Origin: a virus
Lineage: Duplodnaviria > Caudoviricetes
DNA length: 33,485 bases
Virus record (IMG/VR): IMGVR_UViG_3300032245_001057
Coordinates: 1 to 33,485 of that record
Reading direction: 5' to 3' (one strand)
The translations under genes and the position numbers were made by a program. The notes beneath the pieces are model-generated. The model saw nothing but the letters and a program-made list of their open reading frames with translations. It did not search any database and was not told the origin of the DNA. Shown one piece after another: positions 4,393-33,485 of the stretch; positions within the stretch are counted from its first letter, which is position 1, and each line of letters opens with the position of its first letter.

Positions 4393-4741
4393 TTAGAAAT
4401 TGTTTTGTTGTTTTTTTTCTTTGTTTTACCTCTGCGTCTTCACCTATCTTCTCTCCAATAGAGTAATCCTCATACTTACTGAAGTCAACTCTAAAGTTAA
4501 ATGCTGAAAATTTTATATCCATTTTCATTTTTAATTTATCGCAGACAATATAAGATAATGAATCAAATTTTTTGTCAAAAGAAACAATATTCATAAACTC
4601 TTCAGAATATCTTTCACAAAGATCATTGAGGATCTTCATCTCGCGCATGTAAAAAAGACGCTTGTTCTTTGTGGGAACAAGCGTCAGTCTAGAAAGAATG
4701 TCTTTCTTGTTGATTTTTTTCTTTGCTTTCTTTTTAGCCAC
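4385..4741 (-). CDS. Hypothetical basic protein
   Basis: 118-aa ORF overlapping both neighbours; Lys-rich N-terminus. Confidence 0.7.
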   Translation of the reverse strand: MAKKKAKKKINKKDILSRLTLVPTKNKRLFYMREMKILNDLCERYSEEFMNIVSFDKKFDSLSYIVCDKLKMKMDIKFSAFNFRVDFSKYEDYSIGEKIGEDAEVKQRKKTTKQFLND

Positions 4742-5867
4742 ACCCCATTTTAAGTTCTTCTAAGTCATTGTCAAGCATTTTCTTGACTAGACCTTTAAAA
4801 TCTGTTTTAGGTTTCCAATTAAGAAATGCTCTAGCATTTGTAGAATCACCCCAAAGAAGTTCGACTTCTGCTGGTCGATAAAATTTAGGATTAATTTTCA
4901 TTACGATTTGATCATTGACCACGAACTGTTCATCCTCTGGAATGCCAGTATTATTTTTCCAAGCTCCATTTAATCCTGCATGTTCAAATGCTAATTCGAC
5001 AAACTCTCTAATAGTATGAGTTTCATTAGAAGAAAGAACATATTCTTTTGGAGTTTCTTGATTAAGCATTAACCAAATACCTTCTACAAAATCTTCGGCA
5101 TCGCTCCAATCTCTTTTGGCATCAAGATTTCCCAATTCAAGAGGATCAAATTTCTGATCATTATCAAGAGCATTTTTAATCCTAGCAACTGCTTTGCTTA
5201 TTTTGCGAGTAACAAATTCTTCACCTCGTCTAGTTCCTTCATGATTAAAAAGCCAGCCCTGAATAGCGTAAAGATCGTATGACTCTCTCCAGACTTTTAC
5301 GAGCTGTCTTGATGCTGCTTTAGACGCTCCGTATGGGCTTCTAGGGCGCAATGGATGTTTCTCATCTTGAGGAACATAAGATACATCGCCAAATTCTTCT
5401 GAGGAGCCAGCTTGATAAAACCTACAACTTGGATGATAGAGTCTAATTGCTTCAAGAATGTGAAGAGCTGAAGTAGCATTTGTTTCCCAAGTTTGATGCC
5501 CAAAATCCCAGCTACTTCCAACAAAACTTTGTGCTGCTAAATTAATAAAATAATCTGGCTTGATCTTTTCAATTATCCTCGAAATAGAGTGACTATCAAT
5601 AAGATCAAAGTTAATCAAGTGAAAACGCTCATTATTGATATGAGAAATATTTTTATGATTATAAACACTAAGTCTACGAACGCATCCAAAAATTTCATAG
5701 TCCGTATTAGCTAAAAGATAATCGACCATGTGGCTGCCGTCTTGCCCAGTTACTCCTGTAACAATAATAGATTTTTTACCCACTGATTTTTTTGCCGCAT
5801 CTTCGATGTTTAAGATGTCCATGTGATCTATTTTTTTGCCTGTGTATTTTTCTTTAAGATTTTGCAT
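4734..5867 (-). CDS. gmd: GDP-mannose 4,6-dehydratase
   Basis: TGVTGQDGSH, NLAAQSFV, SSEEFG, PRSPYGASK, FNHE..RRGEEFVTRKI, GNLDAKRDW, RPAEVELL. Confidence 0.95.
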   Translation of the reverse strand: MQNLKEKYTGKKIDHMDILNIEDAAKKSVGKKSIIVTGVTGQDGSHMVDYLLANTDYEIFGCVRRLSVYNHKNISHINNERFHLINFDLIDSHSISRIIEKIKPDYFINLAAQSFVGSSWDFGHQTWETNATSALHILEAIRLYHPSCRFYQAGSSEEFGDVSYVPQDEKHPLRPRSPYGASKAASRQLVKVWRESYDLYAIQGWLFNHEGTRRGEEFVTRKISKAVARIKNALDNDQKFDPLELGNLDAKRDWSDAEDFVEGIWLMLNQETPKEYVLSSNETHTIREFVELAFEHAGLNGAWKNNTGIPEDEQFVVNDQIVMKINPKFYRPAEVELLWGDSTNARAFLNWKPKTDFKGLVKKMLDNDLEELKMGCG

Positions 5868-5868
5868 T

Positions 5869-6807
5869 TTAATTTAATTGATGAATTTTGATAATATATT
5901 TTTTTATAATAACGTCCCAACTAAAATTGTCAACAGCGTATTTTTTAATTTGTTTTCTCATTTTAATTGATTTTTCTCTATTTATTTTGATAACATTTTC
6001 AACATATTCTAGATTATTTATTTTAATTTCGGGGATTACATCAATAAATGGTAATGATAAATCTAAATTGGCTGTAGCATATTCTGATACAACTAAGCCT
6101 AATCCCGCCATTAAAGCCTCTTTAGTAACTAAGGGGTCAGCTTCACCATCACTAAGCAGTATTAAATTTGCATAATTTGTTAAATTAGTATAAAGAAAAT
6201 CTTTATTCCATTCGCCTAAATAATTAATATTATTGTTAAATCTTTCATCAGCAATATTTCCAGCAAAATATAAAGATCCAATACCTTGAAATAAGTATTG
6301 ACGTTTTCTGTAATCTATTTTGGCCAAATAAATAGATTTATCTTTATATTCGCATTCTTCTTTGAGTATAAACAAATCTTCTCTTGCTCCATTTGGAGTG
6401 ATAAATAACCTATCATTTGCAACGCCTAATTTTAAATATGTATTTTTTATATTTTCAGATAGACAAAAGACATAAAAATTTCCAGTAATAATTTCATGTA
6501 GAATTCTATGATATTCAGGATGCTTTTCATATTGTTCTGTATAAGCGTAGTGAGTAGTCAATGCTTTTCTTTTGCATTGAATGCGTGGCATTAGAAATGC
6601 ATAATCATCATATTGCATATGCACAAAATCAGGATTAAAAGAATTAACTAAATCAACAATTTCTTGTGGATTAGATACGTTAACAATCTGAACATCATGT
6701 CCGTGTTTTTTTAAATTTTCGCTATAATCCCAAATTAATGATTCAACCGCGCCCCAAGCAATTGGAGGGATACTCATGAAGCCAGGTCCAATGATAGATA
6801 TTTTCAT
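5869..6807 (-). CDS. GT-B (GT4-like) glycosyltransferase
   Basis: IPPIAWGAVE N-terminal motif; EADPLVTKEA (EX7E); FSWD near the C-terminus. Confidence 0.75.
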   Translation of the reverse strand: MKISIIGPGFMSIPPIAWGAVESLIWDYSENLKKHGHDVQIVNVSNPQEIVDLVNSFNPDFVHMQYDDYAFLMPRIQCKRKALTTHYAYTEQYEKHPEYHRILHEIITGNFYVFCLSENIKNTYLKLGVANDRLFITPNGAREDLFILKEECEYKDKSIYLAKIDYRKRQYLFQGIGSLYFAGNIADERFNNNINYLGEWNKDFLYTNLTNYANLILLSDGEADPLVTKEALMAGLGLVVSEYATANLDLSLPFIDVIPEIKINNLEYVENVIKINREKSIKMRKQIKKYAVDNFSWDVIIKKYIIKIHQLN

Positions 6808-6808
6808 A

Positions 6809-7609
6809 TTAGATATTCCATTTTTCTTTTATTGCGTCTTGTGTTTCTCCATTATAATCTAGACCATTTATTTGTCTATCTGAATAACCATGAAATACAA
6901 ATATTTTTTCAAATTCATCATCAAAAGGATTTTTACCAAATAGTTCGTTATTAATTAATTTTAATGGCATGTGATTAGCGCAACAATGGTTTGATGATCC
7001 GTTTATATTTTGATATTCATATTTTAATAATACCGTTGATAAAAAAGTTTCATCATATAACCCATCAATAAATTGATTATTATTTAAATAGTATTCGTTA
7101 TGTAAATTAAAAACTTCTTTTAATATACTTAAGCAGTTTTGATTGTTTTTAAAAAAGAATACGCCTCCTGTAAAAAATGGAGTTTTTGGATCTATAGCGT
7201 ATTTATTTATGAAATCAAATGATGATTGAGTTCTAAATATTTTAGAAAATTTATTAAAATCTATTAAATGAAAATGTTGGATAACTCCAAATTTATTTTG
7301 GATTTTATTAAAAATTTGCTCAATTTGATCGCTACATATAATTGTATCACAATCTAAATATATTCCGTATTCAGTATCTAATTGTTGACATACATAATAT
7401 TTATATTGCCAAAATATATGTTTTTGATTTATTTTTTCATCAATGTGTATTATCTCTATATTTTCAGAATTAGTTAATTTTTTATCAATATCTAAAATTT
7501 TAATTTTATATTTAACATTTAATCTAGACAAACTTCTTATAGATTTTTTTAATTGCTCATAATAGATGTCCGACCCACCAACAACATAAAAAAATGTATA
7601 TTTTATCAT
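6809..7609 (-). CDS. GT-A (GT8-like) glycosyltransferase
   Basis: YLDCDT DxD motif, FTGGVFFF, YDETFLS. Confidence 0.6.
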   Translation of the reverse strand: MIKYTFFYVVGGSDIYYEQLKKSIRSLSRLNVKYKIKILDIDKKLTNSENIEIIHIDEKINQKHIFWQYKYYVCQQLDTEYGIYLDCDTIICSDQIEQIFNKIQNKFGVIQHFHLIDFNKFSKIFRTQSSFDFINKYAIDPKTPFFTGGVFFFKNNQNCLSILKEVFNLHNEYYLNNNQFIDGLYDETFLSTVLLKYEYQNINGSSNHCCANHMPLKLINNELFGKNPFDDEFEKIFVFHGYSDRQINGLDYNGETQDAIKEKWNI

Positions 7610-8559
7610 TCTAAAAGATTTTTAATTTTTGTAATATAAGAATTCATTAAAATACTTTCAAGACCAAAAGCATCAATAGCGTATTGTCTGATTTCTTGTC
7701 TTTTATTAGTTGATATTTTTTTATTTTTCTCGATAATTTCTTTAATATAATTAATATCATTTATTTTATCTTCGGGTATAATATCAATAAAATCTAAACT
7801 TGTATCTAATTCATATGCGACGGCTTCTGTAACAACCAATCCTAATCCACACATTAAAGCTTCTTTAGGTGCTAAAGGCGTAGTGTTTTCAACAGAACTG
7901 ATTAAAATAAAATTGGAGTATTTAGAAATTTCTTGATTTAATAATTCTCTAGAGACTTCTCCTTTGTAGTTTTTGTAATTATGAAATTTTGAATCGGACA
8001 GTCTTCCCATGAAATCAATATTTTCAATATCTTGAATTATATATTGTCTTTTTCTATCAACAATTTGGGAAAAGCATAGAGTCTTATCGTATTCAGCTTT
8101 TTCATAGAAAGTATATGGTTCATATCTTACCCCTAATTTACTTAAAAATGTATTTTCTCGTTTTGCTCCAAAATTAACAAAAGTATCAATATCTTTTTGA
8201 GATGATGCAAAAATATGAAAATCTTTATTATTAGTAATTTGATTTATAATTCTATCGTATCCATCATTATGATAATTATTTGGATTATTAATAAATGGAT
8301 AATGACTTGATATGATTTTTACTTTTGAATAAATGCTATTTATAATATCAATAAATATATCATAATGAATATGGACCACATCATAGTTTCCTGAATTCAC
8401 TTTTTGAATAATTTCAATCCTAGACGAGCTATTGATAATATCAACATTAATATTATTTTTTGTTAAAATGTTATAATAATCCCATAACATCATTTCTACC
8501 GCGCCCCAAGTATCTGGAGGTATAGGCATTATTCCTGGAGCAACTAAACAAATTTTCAT
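7606..8559 (-). CDS. GT-B (GT4-like) glycosyltransferase, paralog of 5869-6807
   Basis: IPPDTWGAVE; ENTTPLAPKEALMCGLGLVV. Confidence 0.75.
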   Translation of the reverse strand: MKICLVAPGIMPIPPDTWGAVEMMLWDYYNILTKNNINVDIINSSSRIEIIQKVNSGNYDVVHIHYDIFIDIINSIYSKVKIISSHYPFINNPNNYHNDGYDRIINQITNNKDFHIFASSQKDIDTFVNFGAKRENTFLSKLGVRYEPYTFYEKAEYDKTLCFSQIVDRKRQYIIQDIENIDFMGRLSDSKFHNYKNYKGEVSRELLNQEISKYSNFILISSVENTTPLAPKEALMCGLGLVVTEAVAYELDTSLDFIDIIPEDKINDINYIKEIIEKNKKISTNKRQEIRQYAIDAFGLESILMNSYITKIKNLLE

Positions 8560-8561
8560 AA

Positions 8562-9809
8562 TTAAATTATTTCAAATTTTGGACAAGGAACTATAAATTT
8601 ACCGCCATTATCTAAGAAAGATTTTTCTCTAACTTTGAATTCATCAATAAAATGCCAAGGAAGAATGAGTAAGTAATCAGGGTTAGCTTTTCTCATTTCT
8701 TCTTCTGAAAAAATAGGAATATTTGTACCAACAGTTTTTAAGCCAAACTTATAAGGGCTTCTTTCTGCCGCTCCGTCAATTAATGTATTGTCTAATCCAA
8801 AATATTGTAATAATGTATTACCTTTTGTTGATGCTCCATAAACCCAAGTGCTTTTTCCTTTTTCTTTTGCTGATTTAATGAAATTAAAAGTCTGCTCTTT
8901 TAAGGATTTTATTTTTTCATAAAAATCAAGATAGTATGATGGTTCATTCATATTAAGATTCTCTTCGTATTGAAGAAGAGATTCTATTCTAAATTTTGCG
9001 ACATCCCTATAAGGAGCTGTAGCAAATGAATTTTTACTTGCAGTATTTTTTTGTAGATAAACCCTAAATGAACCCCCATTAACATCATTCAATTCGCAAT
9101 CAACAATTTTAAAATTACAATTTTCAACTAAATATTTCATTGAGTGCAAATTATAATACATTAAATGTTCGTGACAAATATTATCAAAAGCCAATTGATT
9201 AATCATGAGCGGAGTATAACTCATTTGAATTACAAATAATCCATCATCATCCAATATATCATAAGCGTCATTTAAAAATGATTTTGGATCTTCAAGATCA
9301 TAAAACATAGCAATACAGGTAACGACATCACATTTTCTATTTTTAAAAATGCTTTTATTATAAGATTCCTTAGAAAAGTAATCTTGAATAATTTCATCTG
9401 CATATTTAGAGCTTTCTTTAACATATGAATCTTCTACTGGATCAATTCCTAATTTTGAAATTTCTTCGGGCAAATAACTTAAAAGTGTTCCATCATTACA
9501 TGCTATGTCAAGCCACAAGGATTTATTATCTAGTTTTTTAACATATGTGCATGAATCTACAACATTTTTTAATTGCTTTCTCATGGTGTTATTAGTACCA
9601 GACCTATACCAATATCTTCCATACATTTTATCTGGATCAACTCCCGATTCGAGCTGAACAAGTCCAGATTTTTTGGATAGCATTAATTTTAATTCAAATT
9701 TTTCAACTTCTTTTTGATCATCTTCAATAAAATCGGAAACGCATAGATTTCCCAGGGTAAAAAGCTCAACTAGCTCATCGTTTGATATTCTACAGTTTAT
9801 TTTTTTCAT
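8562..9809 (-). CDS. NDP-hexose C-methyltransferase
   Basis: LDIACNDGTLL SAM motif, DNICHEHLMYY, YGASTKGNTLL, PDYLLILPWHF, GGKFIVPCP. Confidence 0.85.
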   Translation of the reverse strand: MKKINCRISNDELVELFTLGNLCVSDFIEDDQKEVEKFELKLMLSKKSGLVQLESGVDPDKMYGRYWYRSGTNNTMRKQLKNVVDSCTYVKKLDNKSLWLDIACNDGTLLSYLPEEISKLGIDPVEDSYVKESSKYADEIIQDYFSKESYNKSIFKNRKCDVVTCIAMFYDLEDPKSFLNDAYDILDDDGLFVIQMSYTPLMINQLAFDNICHEHLMYYNLHSMKYLVENCNFKIVDCELNDVNGGSFRVYLQKNTASKNSFATAPYRDVAKFRIESLLQYEENLNMNEPSYYLDFYEKIKSLKEQTFNFIKSAKEKGKSTWVYGASTKGNTLLQYFGLDNTLIDGAAERSPYKFGLKTVGTNIPIFSEEEMRKANPDYLLILPWHFIDEFKVREKSFLDNGGKFIVPCPKFEII

Positions 9810-9819
9810 GATTGTTTAA

Positions 9820-10791
9820 TTATAGTATGCTTATAATACTGTTGATTCTATTAATATATGTATGATTTTCTTGTACATATTTCATAGAGTTTTTAATAAA
9901 ATTAAAATTATTTTTATTACTCATTCCTATATAGAATAATTCGGCAGGATTATCATTATAAAAGCAGTTCCCATCTAGCTCTTCAAAAATTGTTTTTGAG
10001 TTGGTTAATCCAAGATGTCCATGACTAATATTTTTAAATATTCTACAGGTAACAACCCCCTCTTTTAAATGCTTTGTACCTCGCAAATCAACAGTTATGA
10101 TTGATTGTTGAGATCTTTTGATAACTTCTTCATTACTAAGTGGATTTGACCACGGGCAGTTATGAATAAATTTAATATTATTTTTTTCGCATTCTGTTAT
10201 GAATGGCAAGTAAACACTATAATTTTCATTATCGCCATGTCTGCTGAGTGATCCACAAAAGTTTATAATATTGTCTCTTTGAATGTCAATATCATCATAA
10301 TTAAATTCATTCGGAAGCTTATTAGTAGCCCAGCTAATATATAACTTATCAAAGTCATCTATTTCATAATTTACATAATCATTTACAATTAGAACTTTAT
10401 TATTAGTTTTTGGCTCAAAATACATTGCTGGACCAATTTTAATAGCTTTTTCTTTATTAAGAGAATATTCATGAACATGATCTTTAAAATCTTTACCCGC
10501 CAATCGAACATCAATATATCTTCCAGCGTCTTGATATTTAATTGGTGATGGACAATGCATAATTAAATAACAGCTAGTTTTATTTATTGGTATATTTTTA
10601 TCAGCAAAACCTTCGCTTATGAATAGGCAGTTATCATAATTAAAATTATCTGGAAAATTATTGTCATCAAACCAATATGTTTCATATCCTAAAGATTTAA
10701 ATGCTCTATAATAAGCTTCATGGACATATGAATGAGTATGACTGCCTAAAGGATAACCCCAAATAATTACTTTTAAATATGGTAAAATCAT
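9820..10791 (-). CDS. Probable glycosyltransferase (CgeB-like GT-B C-terminus)
   Basis: CRIFKNIS and ENHTYINR C-terminal motifs. ATG at 10791 gives an ATGA overlap with the upstream gene. Confidence 0.55.
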   Translation of the reverse strand: MILPYLKVIIWGYPLGSHTHSYVHEAYYRAFKSLGYETYWFDDNNFPDNFNYDNCLFISEGFADKNIPINKTSCYLIMHCPSPIKYQDAGRYIDVRLAGKDFKDHVHEYSLNKEKAIKIGPAMYFEPKTNNKVLIVNDYVNYEIDDFDKLYISWATNKLPNEFNYDDIDIQRDNIINFCGSLSRHGDNENYSVYLPFITECEKNNIKFIHNCPWSNPLSNEEVIKRSQQSIITVDLRGTKHLKEGVVTCRIFKNISHGHLGLTNSKTIFEELDGNCFYNDNPAELFYIGMSNKNNFNFIKNSMKYVQENHTYINRINSIISIL

Positions 10792-11327
10792 TTGTATATA
10801 TACCAAGATTGAAAATTTAACTCATTTGTTAAAAAGAATGAATTTCCAAAGACCTCTAATACGGCTTTATCAACACCAAACTGTTCATAAAAAGGATGAT
10901 CCATAGCTGGATTAAAATCGTGTCCAGATAAAATGCCTCCTTTTTTTACTTTTGGTAGCCAATTTTTAATATCATTAATTACTGCATCATATGAGTGATC
11001 TGCGTCTAAATAAATCCAGTCAAAATATTCGTCTTCATATAAAAGAGAAGCTTCATTGCTTTTCATTTTTACTATCTTAACATTTTTTTTATCAGAATAT
11101 GTATTTAAAATTTTATTGTAGCCAAGTTCTACTTGGCCTGGTTTTTGCGAAAAATAAAAATCATTGCCCTCGGTTTGCCACATATCTATTAAATGAATCT
11201 CGTATTCATCATCATAGTACGTTTTTGTATACCCGCCATACTCGACACCAATTTCTGCAATCTTAGGATTTGATTTATTAATCAAACTTATTAAGCCATC
11301 TCTATTTATATTCGTATTAATTTTCAT
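10788..11327 (-). CDS. Class I SAM-dependent methyltransferase (Methyltransf_24-like)
   Basis: AEIGVEYG, FDWIYLDADHSY, LPKVKKGGILSGHD. Confidence 0.85.
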   Translation of the reverse strand: MKINTNINRDGLISLINKSNPKIAEIGVEYGGYTKTYYDDEYEIHLIDMWQTEGNDFYFSQKPGQVELGYNKILNTYSDKKNVKIVKMKSNEASLLYEDEYFDWIYLDADHSYDAVINDIKNWLPKVKKGGILSGHDFNPAMDHPFYEQFGVDKAVLEVFGNSFFLTNELNFQSWYIYK

Positions 11328-12030
11328 TTTTATTTATTCCTGGGAATCTTGGATATTGATTCATATTTTTTTCTTTATGTATAATTATTTTTTCAATCGG
11401 AAGTTGCCAATTTTCTGGATAAGAATATGATGATGATATCGTAACAACTCTATCTTTATTTTTATAAAGATAATAATTTAAATGTGATTCATCGTGCCAT
11501 TTAGCTATAATATTATTATCTAAATCTGTTTGTGTGTTATTTTTTAATTCAGAAATCATTTTACATATTTCATTAGATGAACCACCCCAAAAACACCCCT
11601 GATGATAAATGCCTTCATTTTCTGGAGAAATGTATGCGGTCGATTGTGGATTTGTCTCGATGGTCCACATTTTGTCAGATACATAAATTCCAGGATGCAT
11701 GACTGCAAATAAATCACATATAGGAAATTCATCTATATTCTGTACGACTTCTAAATCGCAATCAAAATAAATAACCATATCGTAATTATTTAATTGATTT
11801 AATATAGTGTTAAAATATTCAAATCTTTTTAGAGTTACAAATGGCCAAGGCTCATGATTTATTTTATTAAAATAAATGTTTGAATATTCACTAGAAATTG
11901 TATCCTCATCAGCAAATAAAAAAATATCTTTTTCAATTAATGGTAAAAATTTATTTTGAATGGACTCAATCAAAGGACTCAAAAAATCTTTATAGTTATT
12001 TGTCGCTACTGTTAGTATTGCTATTTTCAT
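11317..12030 (-). CDS. GT6 family (ABO/alpha-1,3-Gal(NAc) transferase-like) glycosyltransferase
   Basis: VATNNY, WPFVTLKRF, YFDCD, HPG, YHQGCFWGG, AKWHDESHLN. Confidence 0.9.
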   Translation of the reverse strand: MKIAILTVATNNYKDFLSPLIESIQNKFLPLIEKDIFLFADEDTISSEYSNIYFNKINHEPWPFVTLKRFEYFNTILNQLNNYDMVIYFDCDLEVVQNIDEFPICDLFAVMHPGIYVSDKMWTIETNPQSTAYISPENEGIYHQGCFWGGSSNEICKMISELKNNTQTDLDNNIIAKWHDESHLNYYLYKNKDRVVTISSSYSYPENWQLPIEKIIIHKEKNMNQYPRFPGINKNEN

Positions 12031-12039
12031 TATTTATTT

Positions 12040-12852
12040 TTATAATTGAATCCATTCTGATGGGAGTAAGTCTTGTTTGTAAGTTGCGTATTGATTTCCA
12101 CAAATTTGTTTGGCGTAATCTTCAGAAAACCAATTTTGAGGGCATATTATTTTTTTGTTTAAATTTTGATTGAGCCAAGCGGCCCACCAACTAAAGCTCG
12201 AATTGGCTATTATATTGTTTTGACATCGACTCATCAATAGTAAGTCGTCTTGGCCATTATTTCCGTCTATAAAAATAAAATTATCAGTACCTATATTTTT
12301 ATAGGTAAATTCATTTTTGCACCATTCAATATCATTAGAAAATACAAAAAATAAAGTATCTTTATCAAACAAAGATATCGCTTTCTTATAGTATTCTAAA
12401 TCTTGAACGGGATGACAATTTTGTAGATTTAAATAATCACCTCTTCTAATATGAATAGAACAATTTTTTTGGTTTAATTCTTTTGAGTATTTTTGAATTA
12501 AGTTACAATCAAAATTAAATATTCTTTGAATTTCTTCTTTATGTTTTGTAAAATATTTTTCACTTTGAAAATATCCATTTAATATTAAATTATTATCAAA
12601 TTTTGGTATTTTATTATAACAAAAAGATAATTCATCATATTTATGAAATTCTGCATTAGCTGAAGATATTTTAATATTTGAAAAAATATTATCTCTATAC
12701 GAGTCTAATGGTGGATGATGACATGGTATATATAAATTATCATATAATTCAAACTTATGTCCATGATCTAATGAATACGCATAAGCTGTAGCTATTTGAA
12801 ATAATGTATTTCCAAGCCCACCTTGAAGAACTGGTGTTATTTTTTTATTCAT
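12040..12852 (-). CDS. GT11 alpha-1,2-fucosyltransferase-like
   Basis: GGLGNTLFQ, GYFQSEKYF, HIRRGDY, FSNDIEWC, NSSFSWWAAWL. Confidence 0.9.
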   Translation of the reverse strand: MNKKITPVLQGGLGNTLFQIATAYAYSLDHGHKFELYDNLYIPCHHPPLDSYRDNIFSNIKISSANAEFHKYDELSFCYNKIPKFDNNLILNGYFQSEKYFTKHKEEIQRIFNFDCNLIQKYSKELNQKNCSIHIRRGDYLNLQNCHPVQDLEYYKKAISLFDKDTLFFVFSNDIEWCKNEFTYKNIGTDNFIFIDGNNGQDDLLLMSRCQNNIIANSSFSWWAAWLNQNLNKKIICPQNWFSEDYAKQICGNQYATYKQDLLPSEWIQL

Positions 12853-13580
12853 ATCGACAAATTATTTAATAACTTTATAAAATTAAGACATTTGTATTCT
12901 ACATAATCTATATTTTGTTTTTTATTACAAGTAGTTCCATCGGATAAATAAGTATAATCATAGTGCCATACAGTATTATTAGAATCAAAAAATATTTTAA
13001 TTTCTTTTTCATTTAATCTTAATGAAAAATCTATATCTTCATTATGCTTAAATCCTTTAAACATACCATAATAAGGAATATTATTATCCCATTTTATATT
13101 TTCTAATAATGATCTTTTACATACAGAAAAGCATCCTGTTTGATAAAATATATCAGAATTTGATTCGTAATTATACTCTACCATATGATGAAGTGGAAAA
13201 TAAATAGCTCTGTCCCAGTATCTTCCTGAGTCTGGTAATAGAATTTTATTACCCATTATTTGCCAATCTTTATTTGTTTGATTAAAAATTTTAAAATTTT
13301 CTAACCAGTCTGGAGGGAAAAGTATATCATCATCACAATGCACAATAATATCTCCTTTTGAATTTTCAAAAGCTATATTTTTCCTTTTTCCTAAAAATTC
13401 AATGAATTCATTATCTTCAATTAATTCGCAACCTTTTCCTTTAAAAGTATTTAAGTTGTTACCAACAACTATTATTTCATAATCATCATTATTGCGAAAA
13501 TTATTATGTATTGATTTAATACACAAATTAGTTTTATAAGATTTTGAACCATTAGTAATTATACAAAAAGATACAAACAT
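12849..13580 (-). CDS. GT2 family glycosyltransferase
   Basis: SFCIIT, KRKNIAFENSKGDIIVHCDDD, EDIDFSLRL. ATG at 13580 preferred over the track's TTG at 13586. Confidence 0.75.
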   Translation of the reverse strand: MFVSFCIITNGSKSYKTNLCIKSIHNNFRNNDDYEIIVVGNNLNTFKGKGCELIEDNEFIEFLGKRKNIAFENSKGDIIVHCDDDILFPPDWLENFKIFNQTNKDWQIMGNKILLPDSGRYWDRAIYFPLHHMVEYNYESNSDIFYQTGCFSVCKRSLLENIKWDNNIPYYGMFKGFKHNEDIDFSLRLNEKEIKIFFDSNNTVWHYDYTYLSDGTTCNKKQNIDYVEYKCLNFIKLLNNLSI

Positions 13581-13602
13581 AATCAATATGATTGATTATA
13601 AA

Positions 13603-14580
13603 TCAAATATCTTCTTCTTCAATAAATATTTTGACTTCTTGTAGATCTGGATTTTCAGCAAAAAGATCTTCTTGAGAAACAAATGTAGATTCATCCCAAT
13701 CCCATTCTAATCCATCATCGTCGCTCAACAAAAATTCTTCAGCAGAAGCCAAAGAAGATACTGGTTTAGAACTCCAAAATTTACATGACCAGTAATTTGC
13801 TTTCCATTTTGGGCCAAGATTAGTATCACACTGATGTCTTGCCCTGTAGCTTTTGCGTCTTGCTGGATTATCGCGTTTGATTTCCATGTTTGGATCACCA
13901 AATTTTACCATTACGGTATTTCCTTTATCGTTTTTGACATAAACGCCAAATTTCTTTTTAGATCCAGTAGGTAATCTAAAAGGCTTATTAAGTGTATTTT
14001 TTTCAGCATCAGAAAACTCTAAGTCTTCGGCTTCTTGATCTTGATCCCAAACCTCTATTCCAGCAGAAATTAAATCTAACTTAGCCAAATCAAATTCAAT
14101 ATCTTGAAAGTCCCAAAAAGCTTCTCCATCTCTTTCGAGATAATAAAGATCATGCCCTTCCGCAACATCTTGATCTGCTTTTCTATAAGCATCCTTGACA
14201 GCGCCACCACGAAGCATCTTTAGAAACATATTAACTCTAGCCATTGCCCATCCGCCTCTTGTCATTCCAACTCTATGGCTAGATGAGAATGCTCCAGCAC
14301 CACGACGATAAATCTTTTTTAATTGACTGAGGCTTGTCTTTTTTTCGTATTTTGCATTATGCTCTTTTACTTTGGCTTGCAAAGCGGAAGTAACTTTTTC
14401 TGAAAAAGTAATAGAAGAAGATTCTCCTGAAGAAGCTGAATCTTTCTTATTTTTTGACGAACCATGTCTCTTCTCTTCTGGTTTAGCTGGAGTCTGTGCA
14501 TCGCTTTTTGGTCCAGAACGCGCAGCCGCAGAAGAATTAGAAAAAAACTCTTTTATTTTATCAGAAAAATCGAATTCCAT
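13603..14580 (-). CDS. Hypothetical protein with two basic domains and acidic linkers
   Basis: Domain 1: LKKIYRRGAGAFSSSHR...WAMARVNMFL. Domain 2: KKFGVYVK...VKFGDPNMEIKRDNPARRKSYRARHQC...YWSC. Both resemble recurrent small phage domains; function not assignable. Confidence 0.75.
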   Translation of the reverse strand: MEFDFSDKIKEFFSNSSAAARSGPKSDAQTPAKPEEKRHGSSKNKKDSASSGESSSITFSEKVTSALQAKVKEHNAKYEKKTSLSQLKKIYRRGAGAFSSSHRVGMTRGGWAMARVNMFLKMLRGGAVKDAYRKADQDVAEGHDLYYLERDGEAFWDFQDIEFDLAKLDLISAGIEVWDQDQEAEDLEFSDAEKNTLNKPFRLPTGSKKKFGVYVKNDKGNTVMVKFGDPNMEIKRDNPARRKSYRARHQCDTNLGPKWKANYWSCKFWSSKPVSSLASAEEFLLSDDDGLEWDWDESTFVSQEDLFAENPDLQEVKIFIEEEDI

Positions 14581-16266: not shown

Positions 16267-17277
16267 TTATTTTAAAATCTTGTAAATCATCTGCACAGAT
16301 ACATTGTACTCTAATGCTAATTCAACACAAGACATTCCTGTATTTTTTTTGTTTTTTATTTCTTCTAATTTATTCCAAATGGGATGTGATTGTTTTTTCT
16401 TGGAAATGTTATTATTATCGAGTATACGCTTTATTACGCATGGATCACATTTAAAATAATCAGCTATTTTATTATATGATGGGACATCGTTGTACATTTT
16501 TATAATCTGATCCACATATTTCAAATCAATAGCTCTTGTATATGCGTTGCTTTTTCTTATCTCGATATTTTCAGATCTAAGCATATCTGCGAAAAAATTT
16601 GCAGATGCTCCATATTCGGCATGTAATTGGTTTAATGAAAGACCGCTATTGTATTTTTCAATAATTTCATATTTTTTAAGCCATAATGGATTTCGAATAT
16701 TTTTTTCTCTAAATTTGACATTAGCAGTTTTTAAAATTTCTTTAATAATCTTTGAGGATTTTTTAAAAATTTTTGATATTTTATCAATAGACAACATGTT
16801 AATAACATACAATTTTACTATTTCATCGACATGTTTCCTAATTTCAAAATCATAAGATGGATGATTTTCTCCAGATCCAACTGATGCTAGGCCACATTCT
16901 ATCATATTGGTAAGGTCATTTCCTCTATTTTTATAAAAATAATACCATTTATATTCACCTTCATATGCTGAATTTTCATCATCAAAATTTTCTAAAATAG
17001 CAGATAGTATATAGTTTCCATCATTTTCTAATTTTTTAATTTTTCTTGATTTATGAAAGTTCTCATGAGATCTTTGATAAGCTTCTTCCATATGCTTGTT
17101 CTCTCTTCTTAAACATGGGAATTCTTTGTTCTTTGCTTTTCCAATATAAAAAATATTATCATGGTTTAATTCAATGTTATTTTTATCATCGGAAAAAAAT
17201 AAACCATATACATAATAATTAGATGTTGTTGGATCTAATCTATAGACTTTTCTTTTTTTATTATATTGTTTAGACAT
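16267..17277 (-). mobile_element. Free-standing GIY-YIG (LEM-3-like) homing endonuclease with C-terminal HTH repeats
   Basis: YYVYGL...FYIGKAK...R...SAYEGE...LTN followed by ~4 HTH-like units; lies between nrdB and nrdA. Confidence 0.75.
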
Positions 17278-26558: not shown

Positions 26559-29500
26559 TTAACTTCTTCTTAAAACGCCCCCAAGTCTTTTTTCTTCTTG
26601 AAGCACTTGAACAACTGCATCTCTAATTTTCTTAGAGAGATTTTGATCTTTTTGACTTCCACCATCTTGCTGATTATCTCCACTAGTTTGTCCTTGTTGC
26701 GAAGAAACGTTGACTGTGACGGGCTTGCTCGATTCTTTAGTGACTCTTATCAACTCGTCGATCTTATTGATGAGTTGATCATTAATAGCTGAAGAGCTAG
26801 TATCTGTCGATGCTCCAGAGTTCATCGCATTAAGATTGTTTGCTCCAATTCTTCGGGTTGCTCCAGCATTCATAATGAACTCACCACCAGAAAGCATTGC
26901 TGGGACTGTATCTATTCCAGATGTTTGAGGAATCGCGCCACCAGTAGCCAACCTTTTAATGTTTAATGCTCCCATATTGGCAAATTTATCATAAAGATTT
27001 TTATCACTTCCAGCAAAAAAATCAATAACATTTTTTCCCATTCCACCTGTATCATCAACTCTATATATAGCTCCATTAATTTCTAACATTGTTCCTAGTG
27101 GAAAATAATTAGAAGCTACGCTTTTACCAGCTTCCAAAGTTCTTCCAGACGCGCCAAGTGTTTGACTAAAGCCTTCGTAGCCTTTGACTCCGAGATTAGC
27201 TTTTTCTTGGTCCATCGCAGTTGTTTTATCTATTGATGCTGATCCATAAGCAGTTGCTACAAAATTTCCATTCAAACTTGTTGCAGCATTTGATTCTCCA
27301 AAAGATCCACCATTAACCACCAAGGCTTTCGGAACTCCATTTTCAAAATTAGTTGTAGCCATATTATAGTATTGGCTAGCAGATTTAAAATCTCCAGAAA
27401 ATAATGAACCCAAACTTGATCCAACATTTCCAAATTTTTCGCCTACACCTTTGACTCCACCCATAAAAGTCCCTGTCTTGGCAAAACCTTCTTGAAATCC
27501 CGTTTTTGTTATACCCACTCCTGCGCTCACGGCTGATGTAATTAAGGCGCTTATTATGGCTGTTTTGAATGCCTTCTTTTGGGCTTTTTCTTCTTCTCTT
27601 GCTTGTTTTTCAGCTGCAAGTTGTTGAAAATATAGACCCAAAGCTTCTTTCTTAGATTCTTTAACAGCCGCAGCCATTGGTCCTTGATTTCTTCCAAAGT
27701 TAGTAAGCCTGACGCTTTCTGGAGTGAGATCTATATAGGAAGAATCACCACCTCCTCTAATAATGTCTCCAGCTCCAGAAGTATATGATTGCGATGCGTA
27801 ACTTAATAGATTCTTTTTCCCAGAAATAGTTCCAGCTCCATAATATCCAGGCATTTGGAATCCACCTTTACCAGTTTGATTTCTAACATTTGAAGCATTA
27901 ATAACATCAGAGCCTAAACCTCTATCCCTAATAACTGGTCCTCCTCTAGCATATCCAGAAATTGAACCATTATTCAATGCCTCCATGAATCCTGATCCAT
28001 ACTTAGAGACTGCTTTTTTATTCATGACATATTCGCCACCCATTAACATGGCGGGAACATCATCTTTATTGCCAGAACCGCCAGTAATTGGACCACCAGA
28101 AGCTTTGAATAAAGTTCCTACTCCCCCAGTAAATTGACCAGCAATATTTTTAATTTGAGCTTTTGTTATTTCATTCAAGAAGCTTGAAGCTGCGGCCCTA
28201 AGAGAATCGCCTAAGCTCTTACCTTGCATAATAACGCCTTCCATAGCAGAAGCCATGTTATCTGCAAATAATTGAGGTATTCTTTCTCCAAGATTAAACG
28301 CAAACATTTCGTTTTCATCTCTTAATTTAGTCAATCCAGATTCTAAACCTCCAGGTACACCGCTTTGTATTGCTTTTAATTTTTGTTCAGCCAAGCTCAA
28401 GCCTTTTTCCTCAAGATTGTTACTTTTTGTAAGCTGATCTATTTCTGTATTTCGATTAGCAATAATTTTATCTAAATTATCATTAAATTCTTTTCCATAT
28501 TTTCCTCTAAGCTGCTCTAAATCTGTCGCCTTTGCTATTTCATCAGTTATTCCTGCTACTTCTGTTGCATCAACGCCTTTTGTAGCAAGCGATGTAGCTT
28601 GTTGTATTCCATTTCTCAAATATCTTTGTTGTATTTCTTGAACAGCTCTCGATTGATCTATTGGTTGTAATTCTCTTTGTGATTTAGCTTGTTCAGCTTC
28701 TCTTTTGAGAGCTTGTAATGAAGTTTCATTTAGTTTTGGTTGCCCTAATTCAGCAATTTTTTTTCTTTTTGCGAATTCATCTGGAGAAAATTGTTTAATT
28801 TCTAAATCTTTAGATTGTTGAGCAAGTTGAATAGAATTTTGAATTAATTCATTTCTTTTTGATAGATTATCATTCCTATCTTTATCTGCATCACTAATTT
28901 GTCTTGTAATTCCTAAAATAGTTTTTAAAAGAGATGCTTGATCATTTATTTTTTTCTCTCCAGCGAATAAACTAGTAATATATTTTAATATACCATCATT
29001 CGCTAAACCCTCTTTACCTATGACTCCATCTAAACTGGAGCCAATTTTTTTAGATATGTCTTCAATTTTTGCAAAATCATTATTAGCAAATGCTTTTCTT
29101 AAATCTTCACTAAATGAATTTGTTTTTTCAGATATAGAAGTAAAAACTTTATCAAAATCTTCTATTTTTAACCCTGCGCCAGAAAGTGTTTTTTCTAAAT
29201 CCCCTCTCAATCCTTCATATGCAGTTTGTTGATTTTTGATTAAATTATTCTGAGTTTCAAATTTTTTATTTGAATCTTCTATAGCGTCAGATCTTTTTTT
29301 GTCAGTCAAAAGTGCATTATTAGCTATGTCTAATAATTCATTATTTGGACCTAATGCTTTATTTTCTAATTCATTTATGATTTTAGTATATTGAGATTGC
29401 CCTCTTAATAATGCTAATGATTTATTATATTCAATATTTAATGCTTGGCTATCAGTTAATATTGCATCTTGCTTTTGTCTATATGCCCCTATTAATTGAT

Positions 29501-32500
29501 TAGCTTGCTTTAATAATTCATTATTAAGCGGTTCGCTACCTTCCGCCATGCCTCCTGTTACTAAAGCTGATTTTATAAAATTTAATGGATTAGCTTGTGA
29601 TTTTATTTTAGCTTCATCAGTAAAAGCATATTTATTCTTTTTATAATCTTCAAAGTTGCCATAGCCAGCCGCTTTAGCTTTTTCCTCATTACTCATTAAA
29701 CTAGGATTAATAAATTTTTCCACATCTTGTGGATTCATTTGTCCAATTATGTTTCCCAGCCCTTCATTTGGATTTAAGTTTAATTTTTTAATTTCTATAT
29801 CTGTTTTTTTAAGATCATCTATAAATCCGTTAAATGATGACGATAATTGCAATATTTCATCTTGTGTAATTATTGAATCTTTGGAGAATTTTTGAATTTC
29901 TGCATTTAATTTATCTACTGAAACTCCAGCGCCCAACGCTTGTGCTTGCATCTTAAATAGATTATCTTTAAGTTCGTCAGTTACGTCTCCAGCAAAGTTA
30001 GCTGTCTCTTCTACAGTTCGATAAGAATCAGAACCAACATCACCCCCGCCACTTTTTTCACCCAGTAAATACGTTCTTCCAGTTTTTAAAGATTGCCGAA
30101 CAGAAGCTTGTGCTTGTTCCTCGACTTTCTTTTTTCCCTCTGGAGATAATTTATCTAAATTAGTACTAGCTTCGGCTGCGGCTTTTCCAACTCGATCTAA
30201 AGATTCAGCGACTGTTCTATTTATGCCAGATTGCTCATTATAAATCTCAGTTCCAATTTGCCAAGCCGCAGTTAAAGCTCCGATAGCCAATCCAGCAGGA
30301 CCAAGAAATCCAGCAAATTTTGGCAAAGCTGTTCCCAGCCCTTGTAAAGCGAATACCGCTGTAGTTCCCGAAGAAAGACCCTCTGAAACTATATTAGAAT
30401 ATTTACCTACTTTACTTGTAGCGTCAGAAGTGGCTCCGCTCAAAGCTGAAAATCCAGCTTGAAGAGCAAATATTGTTCCAAGCATATCTTTTGAACCCTT
30501 TTCTTTAGGTTCTGAAACTCTTGCCTCCCTAAGTGTTGCAGTTATTCCTGTACCTAGAACTCCTTTTGTAGATTCGATAATAGCTTTTTTCACCAATTCA
30601 TTTTCTTTCTGCATGTCCGATGAAAGGTTATTTGACGCCAAATTTAATTTGGCTAATGTATCTGTATGCTTTTTATAAGCATCTCCATTTACTTTGACTT
30701 TTCCAAGTTTGCTTTCAGTAGCTTTTATATCGGCATCAATTACAGCAATTTGTTTTTTAAGCGCCTGTTCATATTGTTTATCTGCCTCTTCTAAAGCTTT
30801 ACTTCTTGTCATCCCAACATAGGGTGTCAAATTTGAATCTGCATAATTTGGAACAAAACCTCCAGCAGCTCCATACATTTGAGCATTGGCCCCTTCTTTT
30901 CTAGCTCTATTGATACCCTGAAAGCCTCCTGCTGGCTCATCACGGCGATTAGCCACCATAAGGCCCATAGGATTGCCCGAGTTCTTCAGAGAGCTATGCT
31001 GATCAACATAGACCTGACTAGGATCAACTCCTGCGCCAACTTCTCTTGAGATAGCTTCTTTTAATGGATCAGCAAAGTTGGGGATAAAGCCTTTTTGTTT
31101 TACAAGATTTCTTAAACCTTCAGGATTTGCGGCAATTTGTTTTGAGAAAACTTGGAATACTTGATCCATAGATGCGGTTGGTCCAGCAGCACGGTATGCC
31201 TTGTCCACCATAGCGGAAATTCCATTTTCTGAATCAAGAGTATCAAATACTTTTCTTAAAGATATTCCTTTGTTTCCAACTTTAGCAGAAGCTCCAAACT
31301 TTTTCAAGAACATCTCTTGTTCTTGCTTGGAAAAGCCGCTTGTTCCATCTTTGATTCTTTTTAAAGTATCAGTTATGTAACTTTCATTAACAAAATTTGG
31401 GACATAACCAGAAGCTCCATTTACAATCTGAAGATTTCCGCCCATCTCTTTTTTAAGAATATCTAAAAACTCAGGTTGATTTAATGGAGCATATGAAGTG
31501 CCTTTTAATTGAGCCTCTGATCTGAGATCATTGCCTCCAGTTGCGACTCTAGCTTCTCTTCTTCTTTTTATTTCTTCATTATCAACATTTAAATATTTTA
31601 AAGATCCTCCAGAACGTTTGATTGAATCTAGTATCGGTTGAAATTGCTTTGAAATACCAGTAGGCGTTTTAGCTAAACCAGCAGCAGACAATATTGTAAA
31701 TCCAGTTGCTTTCGCCACATCTTCCATAGATTGGATGAATTGACCAATGCCGCCAGCCATTGTCGATTTGCCAGCTCCAGCAGGAGCGAGAATACCATCT
31801 TTTCTTTTTTTAGAAGCTAATATAGCTGGTAAAATAGATGCACGAAGTTCTGCTGGAAGTTTATCTGAATCATAAACATAATTAGCGAAGTTGGGGATAT
31901 AACCTGATGCTGCTTTACCAAAAGCAGATTGACCCTTTTCAACTTTCAATATTTTACCAGCAACTGATGAAATAAGATCTGGCCCAGAATTAGCCTTAGC
32001 CTCTAAGCCTTTAGTTGATTGACCGCTTTGAATTCCAAATAATTCTTTTATTCTTCCATAAGGCTTAAAATCAATCAATGAGCCTCTATCTTGTGAAGAA
32101 AAATCTGAAAAATCTTTATCTTTTAAAATGCCAGCTATTCCCGCTTCAAAAATAGCTCCAGAAGTGCCAGTTAAAGCTCCTTTATTTAATAAGGACTCTA
32201 TAAGTTGTATATTTTCTGGATTTGGAATTTGACCACCAGATAAATCTTTTGCCATTTTTAAAGCAACTGAAGCTGAAACTTTTGATAATTGTTCTGTAAT
32301 TTTAGTGCTTTCTTTAAATTTTAAATTTTTATCATTAATTCTATGAATAGGAACATCAATTAAATATTTACTTGATTCAGTTGGATTTAATGTTATTCTC
32401 CCTTTGTCATCGGCATATCTTGATGCCATTTGACCAGTACCCTTCTCCCCAACAATCATTCCAAAATCAACTCCTCCAGCATTTACTTTAGCTAAATTAC

Positions 32501-33485
32501 CCAAAGATTTAGCTTTAATAGACGAAAGAGCATTCTTAATTTGGCTTTCGGCCATTGTTCCTCCACTTGGAAATTTAAAAGTTTTTGAATTTCCAATCCT
32601 ATATTGTTCTATATTATCGGCATATTGTCTAACTTCAGCTGCTGAAGCCGTTTGTGCAAAATTAGGAATAAACCCATTGGCAGAATTAATTTTCTGAGCA
32701 TTAGATGGCAAACCCATTCTTCCAACCATGTCTCTATTGAAAATAGCAGATCCACCTCCTCCACCATAATTTGGAACAATATGCTCGCCAGTATTAGCAA
32801 CCATAGTCCCCTTTTTCCCGCCACCAAAGTTAAAATTAGGAATAATAACTGGCCTATCTGAAGATCTTGCGCCACCGACACCTTTATTAATATCATTGGC
32901 TTCTGCCATTACTGTTGGCATATAACCACCAGCAGCCCTTGGCTTACCAGCTCCAGTTGTAGCTCCATACACAGCAGGAGCAATTGACGCTGCAATAGTT
33001 CTCATTTTCTCCATTGTAGCCAATTGAGTATTCAAAGCAGTAGAAAAGAACTTCGCTTGGGACAGTCTATCACCTTCTAATGCTAGAATTTGAGTCTGAA
33101 TTGATTTGTTATTTAACAGAGTAGAAGCTATGGTTGATTGAATCGCTCCAATTTCTTTTGCCGCAGAACCAATATTGAAGAATGTTTTTAATGCTGACGC
33201 TCCAAATTGAACAAAATTAATTGATAACTTAGCAATAATTGCTCCAAATAAAAGTAATCCTGGCCCTGATAATATACCGCCAATTCCCTTTACAATACCT
33301 TTTGCAAAATCAGAACCAAGACCTTCTCCTTGAAGAAGATCTTTAACATTTGTAGCAAAACTATTAAAGAATGATAAGATATTTTTTAAACTATCAGTAA
33401 CTCCAATCTCTCCAAGAGTATTAGCTAGTTCTTGAAGATTTACAGTTGCTTCATTAATCGAAGCCGCGAGAGTTTTATTTAATGC
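26559..33485 (-). CDS. Tape measure protein with embedded enzymatic domains, 5'-partial (>=2308 aa)
   Basis: The frame stays open for 150 more codons beyond the track start (33035) to the window edge. Coiled-coil and hydrophobic segments; two D(D/T)VPAML.GGE(Y/F) units typical of TMP C-termini; a 3D domain; followed by tail genes. Confidence 0.85.
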   Translation of the reverse strand, partial: ALNKTLAASINEATVNLQELANTLGEIGVTDSLKNILSFFNSFATNVKDLLQGEGLGSDFAKGIVKGIGGILSGPGLLLFGAIIAKLSINFVQFGASALKTFFNIGSAAKEIGAIQSTIASTLLNNKSIQTQILALEGDRLSQAKFFSTALNTQLATMEKMRTIAASIAPAVYGATTGAGKPRAAGGYMPTVMAEANDINKGVGGARSSDRPVIIPNFNFGGGKKGTMVANTGEHIVPNYGGGGGSAIFNRDMVGRMGLPSNAQKINSANGFIPNFAQTASAAEVRQYADNIEQYRIGNSKTFKFPSGGTMAESQIKNALSSIKAKSLGNLAKVNAGGVDFGMIVGEKGTGQMASRYADDKGRITLNPTESSKYLIDVPIHRINDKNLKFKESTKITEQLSKVSASVALKMAKDLSGGQIPNPENIQLIESLLNKGALTGTSGAIFEAGIAGILKDKDFSDFSSQDRGSLIDFKPYGRIKELFGIQSGQSTKGLEAKANSGPDLISSVAGKILKVEKGQSAFGKAASGYIPNFANYVYDSDKLPAELRASILPAILASKKRKDGILAPAGAGKSTMAGGIGQFIQSMEDVAKATGFTILSAAGLAKTPTGISKQFQPILDSIKRSGGSLKYLNVDNEEIKRRREARVATGGNDLRSEAQLKGTSYAPLNQPEFLDILKKEMGGNLQIVNGASGYVPNFVNESYITDTLKRIKDGTSGFSKQEQEMFLKKFGASAKVGNKGISLRKVFDTLDSENGISAMVDKAYRAAGPTASMDQVFQVFSKQIAANPEGLRNLVKQKGFIPNFADPLKEAISREVGAGVDPSQVYVDQHSSLKNSGNPMGLMVANRRDEPAGGFQGINRARKEGANAQMYGAAGGFVPNYADSNLTPYVGMTRSKALEEADKQYEQALKKQIAVIDADIKATESKLGKVKVNGDAYKKHTDTLAKLNLASNNLSSDMQKENELVKKAIIESTKGVLGTGITATLREARVSEPKEKGSKDMLGTIFALQAGFSALSGATSDATSKVGKYSNIVSEGLSSGTTAVFALQGLGTALPKFAGFLGPAGLAIGALTAAWQIGTEIYNEQSGINRTVAESLDRVGKAAAEASTNLDKLSPEGKKKVEEQAQASVRQSLKTGRTYLLGEKSGGGDVGSDSYRTVEETANFAGDVTDELKDNLFKMQAQALGAGVSVDKLNAEIQKFSKDSIITQDEILQLSSSFNGFIDDLKKTDIEIKKLNLNPNEGLGNIIGQMNPQDVEKFINPSLMSNEEKAKAAGYGNFEDYKKNKYAFTDEAKIKSQANPLNFIKSALVTGGMAEGSEPLNNELLKQANQLIGAYRQKQDAILTDSQALNIEYNKSLALLRGQSQYTKIINELENKALGPNNELLDIANNALLTDKKRSDAIEDSNKKFETQNNLIKNQQTAYEGLRGDLEKTLSGAGLKIEDFDKVFTSISEKTNSFSEDLRKAFANNDFAKIEDISKKIGSSLDGVIGKEGLANDGILKYITSLFAGEKKINDQASLLKTILGITRQISDADKDRNDNLSKRNELIQNSIQLAQQSKDLEIKQFSPDEFAKRKKIAELGQPKLNETSLQALKREAEQAKSQRELQPIDQSRAVQEIQQRYLRNGIQQATSLATKGVDATEVAGITDEIAKATDLEQLRGKYGKEFNDNLDKIIANRNTEIDQLTKSNNLEEKGLSLAEQKLKAIQSGVPGGLESGLTKLRDENEMFAFNLGERIPQLFADNMASAMEGVIMQGKSLGDSLRAAASSFLNEITKAQIKNIAGQFTGGVGTLFKASGGPITGGSGNKDDVPAMLMGGEYVMNKKAVSKYGSGFMEALNNGSISGYARGGPVIRDRGLGSDVINASNVRNQTGKGGFQMPGYYGAGTISGKKNLLSYASQSYTSGAGDIIRGGGDSSYIDLTPESVRLTNFGRNQGPMAAAVKESKKEALGLYFQQLAAEKQAREEEKAQKKAFKTAIISALITSAVSAGVGITKTGFQEGFAKTGTFMGGVKGVGEKFGNVGSSLGSLFSGDFKSASQYYNMATTNFENGVPKALVVNGGSFGESNAATSLNGNFVATAYGSASIDKTTAMDQEKANLGVKGYEGFSQTLGASGRTLEAGKSVASNYFPLGTMLEINGAIYRVDDTGGMGKNVIDFFAGSDKNLYDKFANMGALNIKRLATGGAIPQTSGIDTVPAMLSGGEFIMNAGATRRIGANNLNAMNSGASTDTSSSAINDQLINKIDELIRVTKESSKPVTVNVSSQQGQTSGDNQQDGGSQKDQNLSKKIRDAVVQVLQEEKRLGGVLRRS

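Follow-up and report, generated by a model that had tools for sequence, protein, structure and literature searches.

An array of exchangeable modules fenced by a repeated peptide motif within the tape measure protein of an uncultured phage

A motif-fenced array in the tape measure gene

The stretch of DNA analysed here, hereafter called the window, comprises positions 1 to 33,485 of IMG/VR virus record IMGVR_UViG_3300032245_001057 (Duplodnaviria; Caudoviricetes). Its minus strand carries a long open reading frame (ORF), which is open at its 5' end and encodes 2308 residues inside the window (Table 1). Homologues, which are 70–91% alike in flank to the window protein, match the tape measure families of PHROG, and 12 of 12 full-length proteins among them pass the PF10145 cut-off, the core itself falling outside the window. 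On the strength of these matches we identify the ORF as a siphophage's tail tape measure protein (TMP), which agrees with a first-pass annotation made from the letters of the window. The gene lies directly upstream of minor tail genes: genes downstream of it match minor tail families, and PF05939 scores above cut-off two genes downstream.

The TMP contains five exact matches to the motif G[FY][IV]PN[FY], and no other match exists in the window in any of its six frames. The glycine codons start at nt 32675, 31904, 31409, 31091 and 30860, placing the motifs 251, 159, 100 and 71 residues apart, and two or more motifs arose in none of 20,000 shuffles. Both the repeats and their spacing had been recognized by the first-pass annotation, whose estimates of 245, 155, 95 and 65 residues for the modules between them fit these distances. 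Since the copies differ at synonymous codon positions, the repeat is maintained at the protein level. When the strict pattern was searched in five genomes, 15 of 16 hits fell within the TMP gene; the remaining hit, in an unrelated ORF, was taken as chance.

For comparison we assembled 98 homologous proteins: the window, 44 loci from one search, 50 of the 78 loci of a second search (the best 80 of 307 relatives; 28 loci were dropped as the same contigs) and three genome-bin loci. This pool includes truncated proteins and near-duplicates, and the motif was relaxed for counting. In alignments and DNA comparisons alike, the array begins no earlier than the motif closing a conserved opening unit (74% mean column identity). 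This unit holds AAGGYMPT, IIPNF and IVPNY, so that the degenerate repeats previously listed at ~32760–32940 are all parts of one conserved element. At the other end, a closing unit terminates most arrays and forms the largest blastp cluster (87 of 384 modules), a count biased upward by the use of the unit as query in one search, although the same pattern appears among the 44 loci of the other. Thus, of the four unrelated cargo modules originally proposed, three inserts are classed as cargo by these sequence comparisons, whereas the fourth is the closing unit, which is structural; together with the opening unit it brackets the array.

Table 1. Features of the TMP gene in the window (strand as given; positions counted from the first letter of the window)
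Feature	Position	Strand	Remarks
Tail tape measure protein (TMP)	26559..33485	-	5' part beyond window; full-length homologues ~350 residues longer, with PF10145 core
Hydrophobic, possibly membrane-spanning segment	33198..33296	-	just before array; Kyte-Doolittle (KD) 19-residue mean 1.85
Conserved opening unit (94 aa), AAGGYMP to motif 1	32655..32936	-	contains degenerate copies; DNA similarity stops right after motif 1
Motif 1, SANGFIPNFA	32655..32684	-	
Module 1 (247 aa), alpha/beta domain; nuclease-like pattern, fold unplaced	31914..32654	-	predicted local distance difference test (pLDDT) 89.6
Motif 2, AASGYIPNFA	31884..31913	-	
Module 2 (155 aa), P-loop kinase fold (zeta toxin / polynucleotide kinase / nucleoside monophosphate (NMP) kinase superfamily)	31419..31883	-	
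Motif 3, GASGYVPNFV	31389..31418	-	
Module 3 (96 aa), all helices in a low-confidence prediction, no family	31101..31388	-	
Motif 4, KQKGFIPNFA	31071..31100	-	
Conserved closing unit (67 aa), not cargo	30870..31070	-	
Motif 5, AAGGFVPNYA, array end	30840..30869	-	
Common TMP A-x-G-G box, copy 1 (ASGG to ARGG)	27933..28109	-	
Common TMP A-x-G-G box, copy 2	26787..26954	-	

Exchange of modules at the motif codons

Across the 98 homologues, which contain 0–13 motifs each, the 384 inter-motif segments fall into 83 blastp clusters and build 67 architectures, and 84 of 92 arrays are distinct. Cargo accounts for 75 of the clusters (31 of them singletons), a number that overstates the independent cargo families because several clusters are merged by profile links. 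Architectures are scattered on a tree of the flanks (70 rows). Among pairs that are 90–95% alike, 2 of 25 share the same architecture, as do 8 of 14 pairs that are at least 95% alike (the pairs are not independent), and flanks that are 98–99% alike can nevertheless enclose different arrays, e.g. L006/L007/L008 and L098/L099. In a close group among the 44 loci, the same three genes precede the TMP gene and the same tail gene follows within 3–6 nt, whatever the cargo. Modules hence differ between homologues in number, order and identity, with constant flanks and neighbouring genes around them, and the modularity postulated from the window sequence is borne out. As the neighbouring genes of the close group do not co-vary with the cargo, they include no adjacent immunity gene of the kind that accompanies polymorphic toxins, and the array is internal rather than C-terminal. 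In the cassettes of L027 and L069, the closing unit is present twice and its two copies enclose extra cargo, as would result from lengthening of the array by duplication.

The positions at which DNA similarity breaks off point to the site of exchange. The 24 pairs chosen by us have 86 alignment ends inside the array, of which 65 are located between -30 and +40 nt of a motif, as compared to 16% expected. For instance, L006 and L008 are 98% alike up to position +18 of a motif, differ in one module and resume their likeness at the next motif, while L115 and L119 are 99.7% alike on either side of a swapped module and also reveal a tandem duplicate with motifs at its borders. In four samples, 10 of 12 loose contig ends likewise lie at most 23 nt from a motif; they include a minor variant, present in the probable source sample, that is connected to another upstream sequence at motif 2. 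A joint of 30873 to 32727, seen in two samples and resembling a deletion, rests on 29 motif letters and was not counted. Because alignment ends and loose contig ends cluster at the motifs, we conclude that the motif codons are the crossover point for exchange, gain, loss and duplication of modules, in line with the earlier suggestion that the repeats are recombination anchors. Selection for intact domains and the lack of other shared DNA both contribute to the position of the crossovers.

Cargo modules

Module 1 contains E447, D472 and E495-x-K497. Within its family, the D, the (D/E) and the K are invariant (62/62), the E is present in 60 of 62 members, and a G and an F are invariant as well. 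We take this E..D..(D/E)xK pattern to be of the PD-(D/E)xK nuclease type, and our guess is that the module may be a sequence- or structure-selective nuclease. The structural model is confident, and three fold searches failed to place it: Foldseek returned no match (best E 1.5 in PDB, 0.2 in BFVD), VIA reached at best Z 5.8 over a helical hairpin alone, and a circular permutation test (E 0.2) did not demonstrate a permutation. A sequence search of PDB gave chance lectin matches alone, and a language-model (Atlas) search yielded no usable match. Thus, the nuclease signature assigned to this module at first pass stands as a residue pattern, not as a fold. The family comprises 473 relatives at the 50% cluster level, and a second module group carries the same pattern. 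Three distant relatives (P0130, P0156 and P0107) show chained variants such as GYIPRFAKG and NFAKGG. Here, the cassette motif merges at its end with an F-A-x-G start, which hints at a single signal of which each motif type is one half.

Module 2 has a Walker A sequence at 31761–31787, which is kept in 12 of 12 aligned copies, and an Atlas match to a P-loop kinase (0.93). The Foldseek hit (E ~1e-3) is on its own not significant. The VIA list is dominated by kinases that are tied, namely zeta toxin (Z 7.9; root-mean-square deviation 4.0 over 142 aligned residues), polynucleotide kinase (Z 7.7) and uridylate kinase (Z 7.6). The module therefore has a P-loop kinase fold, which upholds the P-loop signature noted before. 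Three proteins of 153–154 residues, one labelled as a complete gene, share both the start and the end border of module 2 at 47% identity; these apparently free-standing relatives suggest capture of whole genes. Profiles of the kinase-like and of the second nuclease-like family found no solved relative. The predictions show module 1 and module 2 as distinct folded domains, as the idea of independent modules requires, with module 2 being confident and the motifs scoring below 50. Module 3 occurs in 8 of 98 homologues and has one relative of similar length, which is unannotated.

Further enzyme types appear among the cargo of relatives. GNAT, SNase and DUF7178 domains score above the Pfam cut-off and ART-PolyVal below it, and protein-kinase-like modules were assigned by eye and by a conserved D/N/D. 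These findings bear on the very unlikely alternative in which the modules would be passengers inserted in frame, selfish or neutral (homing nucleases or length spacers, for example), and tolerated at a permissive site. One or two nuclease-like modules are indeed present in 78 of 83 complete arrays (the family assignment being partly by eye), and some homologues lack cargo or lack the motif, both of which would suit passengers. Kinase, GNAT, SNase and ART-like cargo, however, does not, and catalytic-type residues are kept at 15–25% identity. Moreover, the ratio of nonsynonymous to synonymous substitution rates (dN/dS) ranges from 0.03 to 0.67 and is below 1 in 16 of 16 measurable chosen pairs, i.e. 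the modules are under purifying selection.

Cationic sequences make up 231 of 233 cargo sequences as compared to 40 of 76 TMP backbones. Cysteine is found twice in 47,987 residues, whereas it amounts to 1.5% in ordinary genes, and the cargo is cysteine-free like the TMP backbone, which suggests that both travel the same route.

Delivery, processing and relation to known systems

In our preferred reading, to which we give an even chance, the array is a cassette of folded modules that is exchanged at the motif DNA, likely threaded through the tail and ejected, probably cut free, and acting early in the host. Being part of the TMP ruler, the cassette would be drawn through the tail and, by analogy with TMP biology, the modules would be ejected into the host cytoplasm with the TMP at infection. 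A hydrophobic segment before the array could insert, so that the cassette reaches the cytoplasmic side, as judged from this segment (KD at least 1.6 in 51 of 56 homologues; none within the array) and from cargo that needs ATP, acetyl-CoA or NAD. The modules may then refold and be cut into single enzymes at the motif, by some protease or by the bracketing units, a step suggested by the likeness of the motifs to the cut site of the T5 TMP. Finally, the freed modules would have nucleic acids, nucleotides or proteins of the host as their targets, ahead of phage gene expression; a role in host takeover or counter-defence is a guess. That a TMP-fused enzyme can work after injection is described for Thermus phage P23-45 (PMC10770324).

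The T5 TMP pb2 is cut after R1127 (PMC10038345), within the sequence ANSFVPR/AEGGMM (slash, cut); the opening unit of the window starts with KPRAAGGYMP. A profile of the opening motif ranks the pb2 cut site first (10.3 vs 1.6 bits), as does a profile of the common box, and a profile of the cassette motif through P ranks the seven residues before R1127 first in pb2 (6.5 vs -0.3). Copy 1 of the common box matches 860 phage records, and 27 of the 30 rows listed are annotated as TMP; in L037 and L044, opening-type units are instead seen by eye near the C-terminus. Lambda gpH is cut during tail morphogenesis, releasing a piece of 14 kDa, with site and catalyst given as unknown (PMC12617516); its A-x-G-G at 734 would yield a piece of 12.5 kDa as compared to the reported 14 kDa. 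A cut at residue 1066 of JBD30 is a prediction of its authors and not at an A-x-G-G start, and was not used. In one related genome, a JAB-domain gene is followed by a lambda-like tail assembly gene (L128:1387-2501). Taken together, a link of the motif to the T5-type TMP maturation site is plausible, the register being unsure, and the likeness to the T5 cut site makes cleavage at the motif suggestive only.

As with the TMPs of lambda and T5, for which cutting takes place in tail morphogenesis, the modules might be excised during tail assembly, to act in the producer cell or be discarded rather than injected; moreover, the 218–1367 residues added by the arrays would alter tail length if retained. 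We regard this as unlikely, since removing the middle of a ruler is hard to reconcile with ruler function, both fragments remain in the T5 and lambda particles, and the cysteine-free make-up shared with the backbone suggests a common route. More serious, albeit still doubtful in our view, is the alternative that the modules are delivered but stay uncut. Here, the motif would serve both as a recombination anchor and as a structural connector that contacts the tube, a chaperone or adjacent TMP chains, with the enzymes working while tethered at the entry site. The P23-45 virion RNA polymerase is present in virions within full-size gp96 (PMC10770324), P and N of the motif are conserved to 89–100%, so that P-N-F is kept more strictly than the single mapped cut site would call for, a protease is not established, and all genomic evidence fits equally. 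On the other hand, the opening and cassette motifs both resemble the T5 cut, the motifs are predicted to be unstructured in the monomer, and motifs flanking each module suit release of single domains, as on both sides of the module in 126 of the 150 best-ranked distant relatives of module 1.

Several further observations weigh against delivery followed by cleavage. Not only is the P23-45 polymerase uncut, but the T5 likeness was recognized post hoc over four profiles and two registers, and the invariant Gly of the motif is replaced by Ser in T5. With the cassette profile lacking PNF, the AEGG site comes only third (0.7 bits), the profile through P peaks elsewhere in lambda gpH and JBD30, and its top score of 6.5 is reached at some position in 85 of 1000 shuffled pb2 sequences. 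The opening unit and the common box align with a non-significant hhalign probability of 2.9%; homology of the opening unit, closing unit and common box was not adopted, hhalign finding nothing beyond the motif and only position and eye suggesting it. A JAB-domain tail gene, a candidate protease, is present in one of three related genomes searched. Pfam matches above cut-off are lacking for most cargo (0 of 66 with a match in one scan and 3 of 54 in another), a second, weaker hydrophobic segment after the array reaches a KD of at least 1.6 in 19 of 56 homologues, and exchange at the motif is partly forced, as the motif is the only DNA shared by unrelated modules.

C-terminal of the array, wall-hydrolase domains (SLT twice, GH19, VanY) occur in 4 of 12 homologues. 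In the window, a stretch between the two common A-x-G-G boxes (26970–27233, minus strand) may resemble a 3D-type wall hydrolase domain; Pfam and PDB sequence searches gave no match. The TMP ORFs of L002, L052 and L055 are short (1427–1743 residues) with an intact array, L052 and L055 lacking the C-terminal boxes; they may be split genes or reflect shorter tails. Elsewhere on the minus strand, about eleven low-GC genes at 4734–13586 have a sugar-modifying look (GDP-mannose dehydratase, glycosyl- and methyltransferases) and, judged by eye, probably form a virion or DNA glycosylation island. An acidic 325-residue protein (13603–14580, minus strand) joins two unknown PHROG families (7595 and 28338), and a 336-residue ORF that is homing endonuclease-like by eye (16267–17277, minus strand) lies between two ribonucleotide reductase-like genes. 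Five related records examined are 115–191 kb in size. Parts of the stretch are present in two samples labelled freshwater, and we describe the phage as an uncultured freshwater phage. No RNA sample is listed as containing the stretch. The array region and a neighbouring tail gene have no match among 50,697 annotated phage records. Three genome-bin matches (an uncultured bin, Flavobacterium and Nitrospinales) are mutually discordant, maybe mis-binned phage contigs, and were not used to assign a host.

Among known systems, the array recalls the polyvalent proteins (Iyer et al. 2017, PMC5512222), which unite unrelated enzyme domains in one virion-linked polypeptide of variable architecture and for which delivery at invasion and proteolytic processing have been proposed; relatives of the window TMP also carry ART-PolyVal-like and GNAT modules. 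Polyvalent proteins are, however, thought to be packaged in the capsid and processed by zincin metallopeptidase domains, whereas the carrier here is the TMP, and the passages available on them show no fencing peptide, with 'tape measure' absent from the main text, whereas here one motif fences every module. We consider the array to operate in the manner of a polyvalent protein built on a TMP. Since Pfam scans of the window TMP and its homologues found none of the polyvalent hallmark domains (MuF, zincin metallopeptidase and others; one ART-PolyVal below cut-off), we do not file it as a member. T5 pb2 and lambda gpH are likewise cut near an A-x-G-G box, two common copies of which accompany the related cassette motif in the window TMP, but they have one C-terminal cut and no internal array (PMC10038345, PMC12617516). 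P23-45 gp96 also carries a folded enzyme that is active early in the host, in this case one fixed N-terminal polymerase, uncut in virions, rather than a swappable array (PMC10770324). Mycobacteriophage TMP motifs 1–3 and other TMP wall hydrolases are host-directed enzymes within TMPs that target the cell wall (PMC1796659), in contrast to the exchangeable series of cytoplasmic-type enzymes found here. Finally, Sle1-type effectors of actinobacterial contractile injection systems combine a TMP-related carrier with exchangeable functional domains, but belong to a bacterial nanomachine and have one functional domain (PMC13277306), whereas here a phage TMP holds an internal array. No published description of a motif-fenced TMP array was found and the motif strings match no paper, in searches of mostly open papers excluding supplements (that of PMC5512222 might list TMP fusions); the array is thus apparently undescribed in print.

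We tentatively propose that the fencing peptide represents, in amplified form, the general TMP maturation signal used once in T5 and probably in lambda. In this phage group, the TMP would thereby become a programmable polyprotein injector, i.e. a recombination-shuffled magazine. Its contents would come from dozens of cargo families, among them a nuclease-like domain of unplaced fold, and each would be cut free and delivered prior to any phage gene expression. The array supplies clean cases of recent module exchange inside TMPs, which a published survey of mosaicism in phage proteins was unable to confirm (PMC10684548). As the motif predicts cut sites, the old question of where and how TMPs are cut becomes testable. 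In addition, the 75 cargo clusters in 98 TMPs provide a catalogue of candidate enzymes for host takeover or counter-defence ahead of phage gene expression, and the array may represent a natural design for protein delivery via a non-contractile tail.

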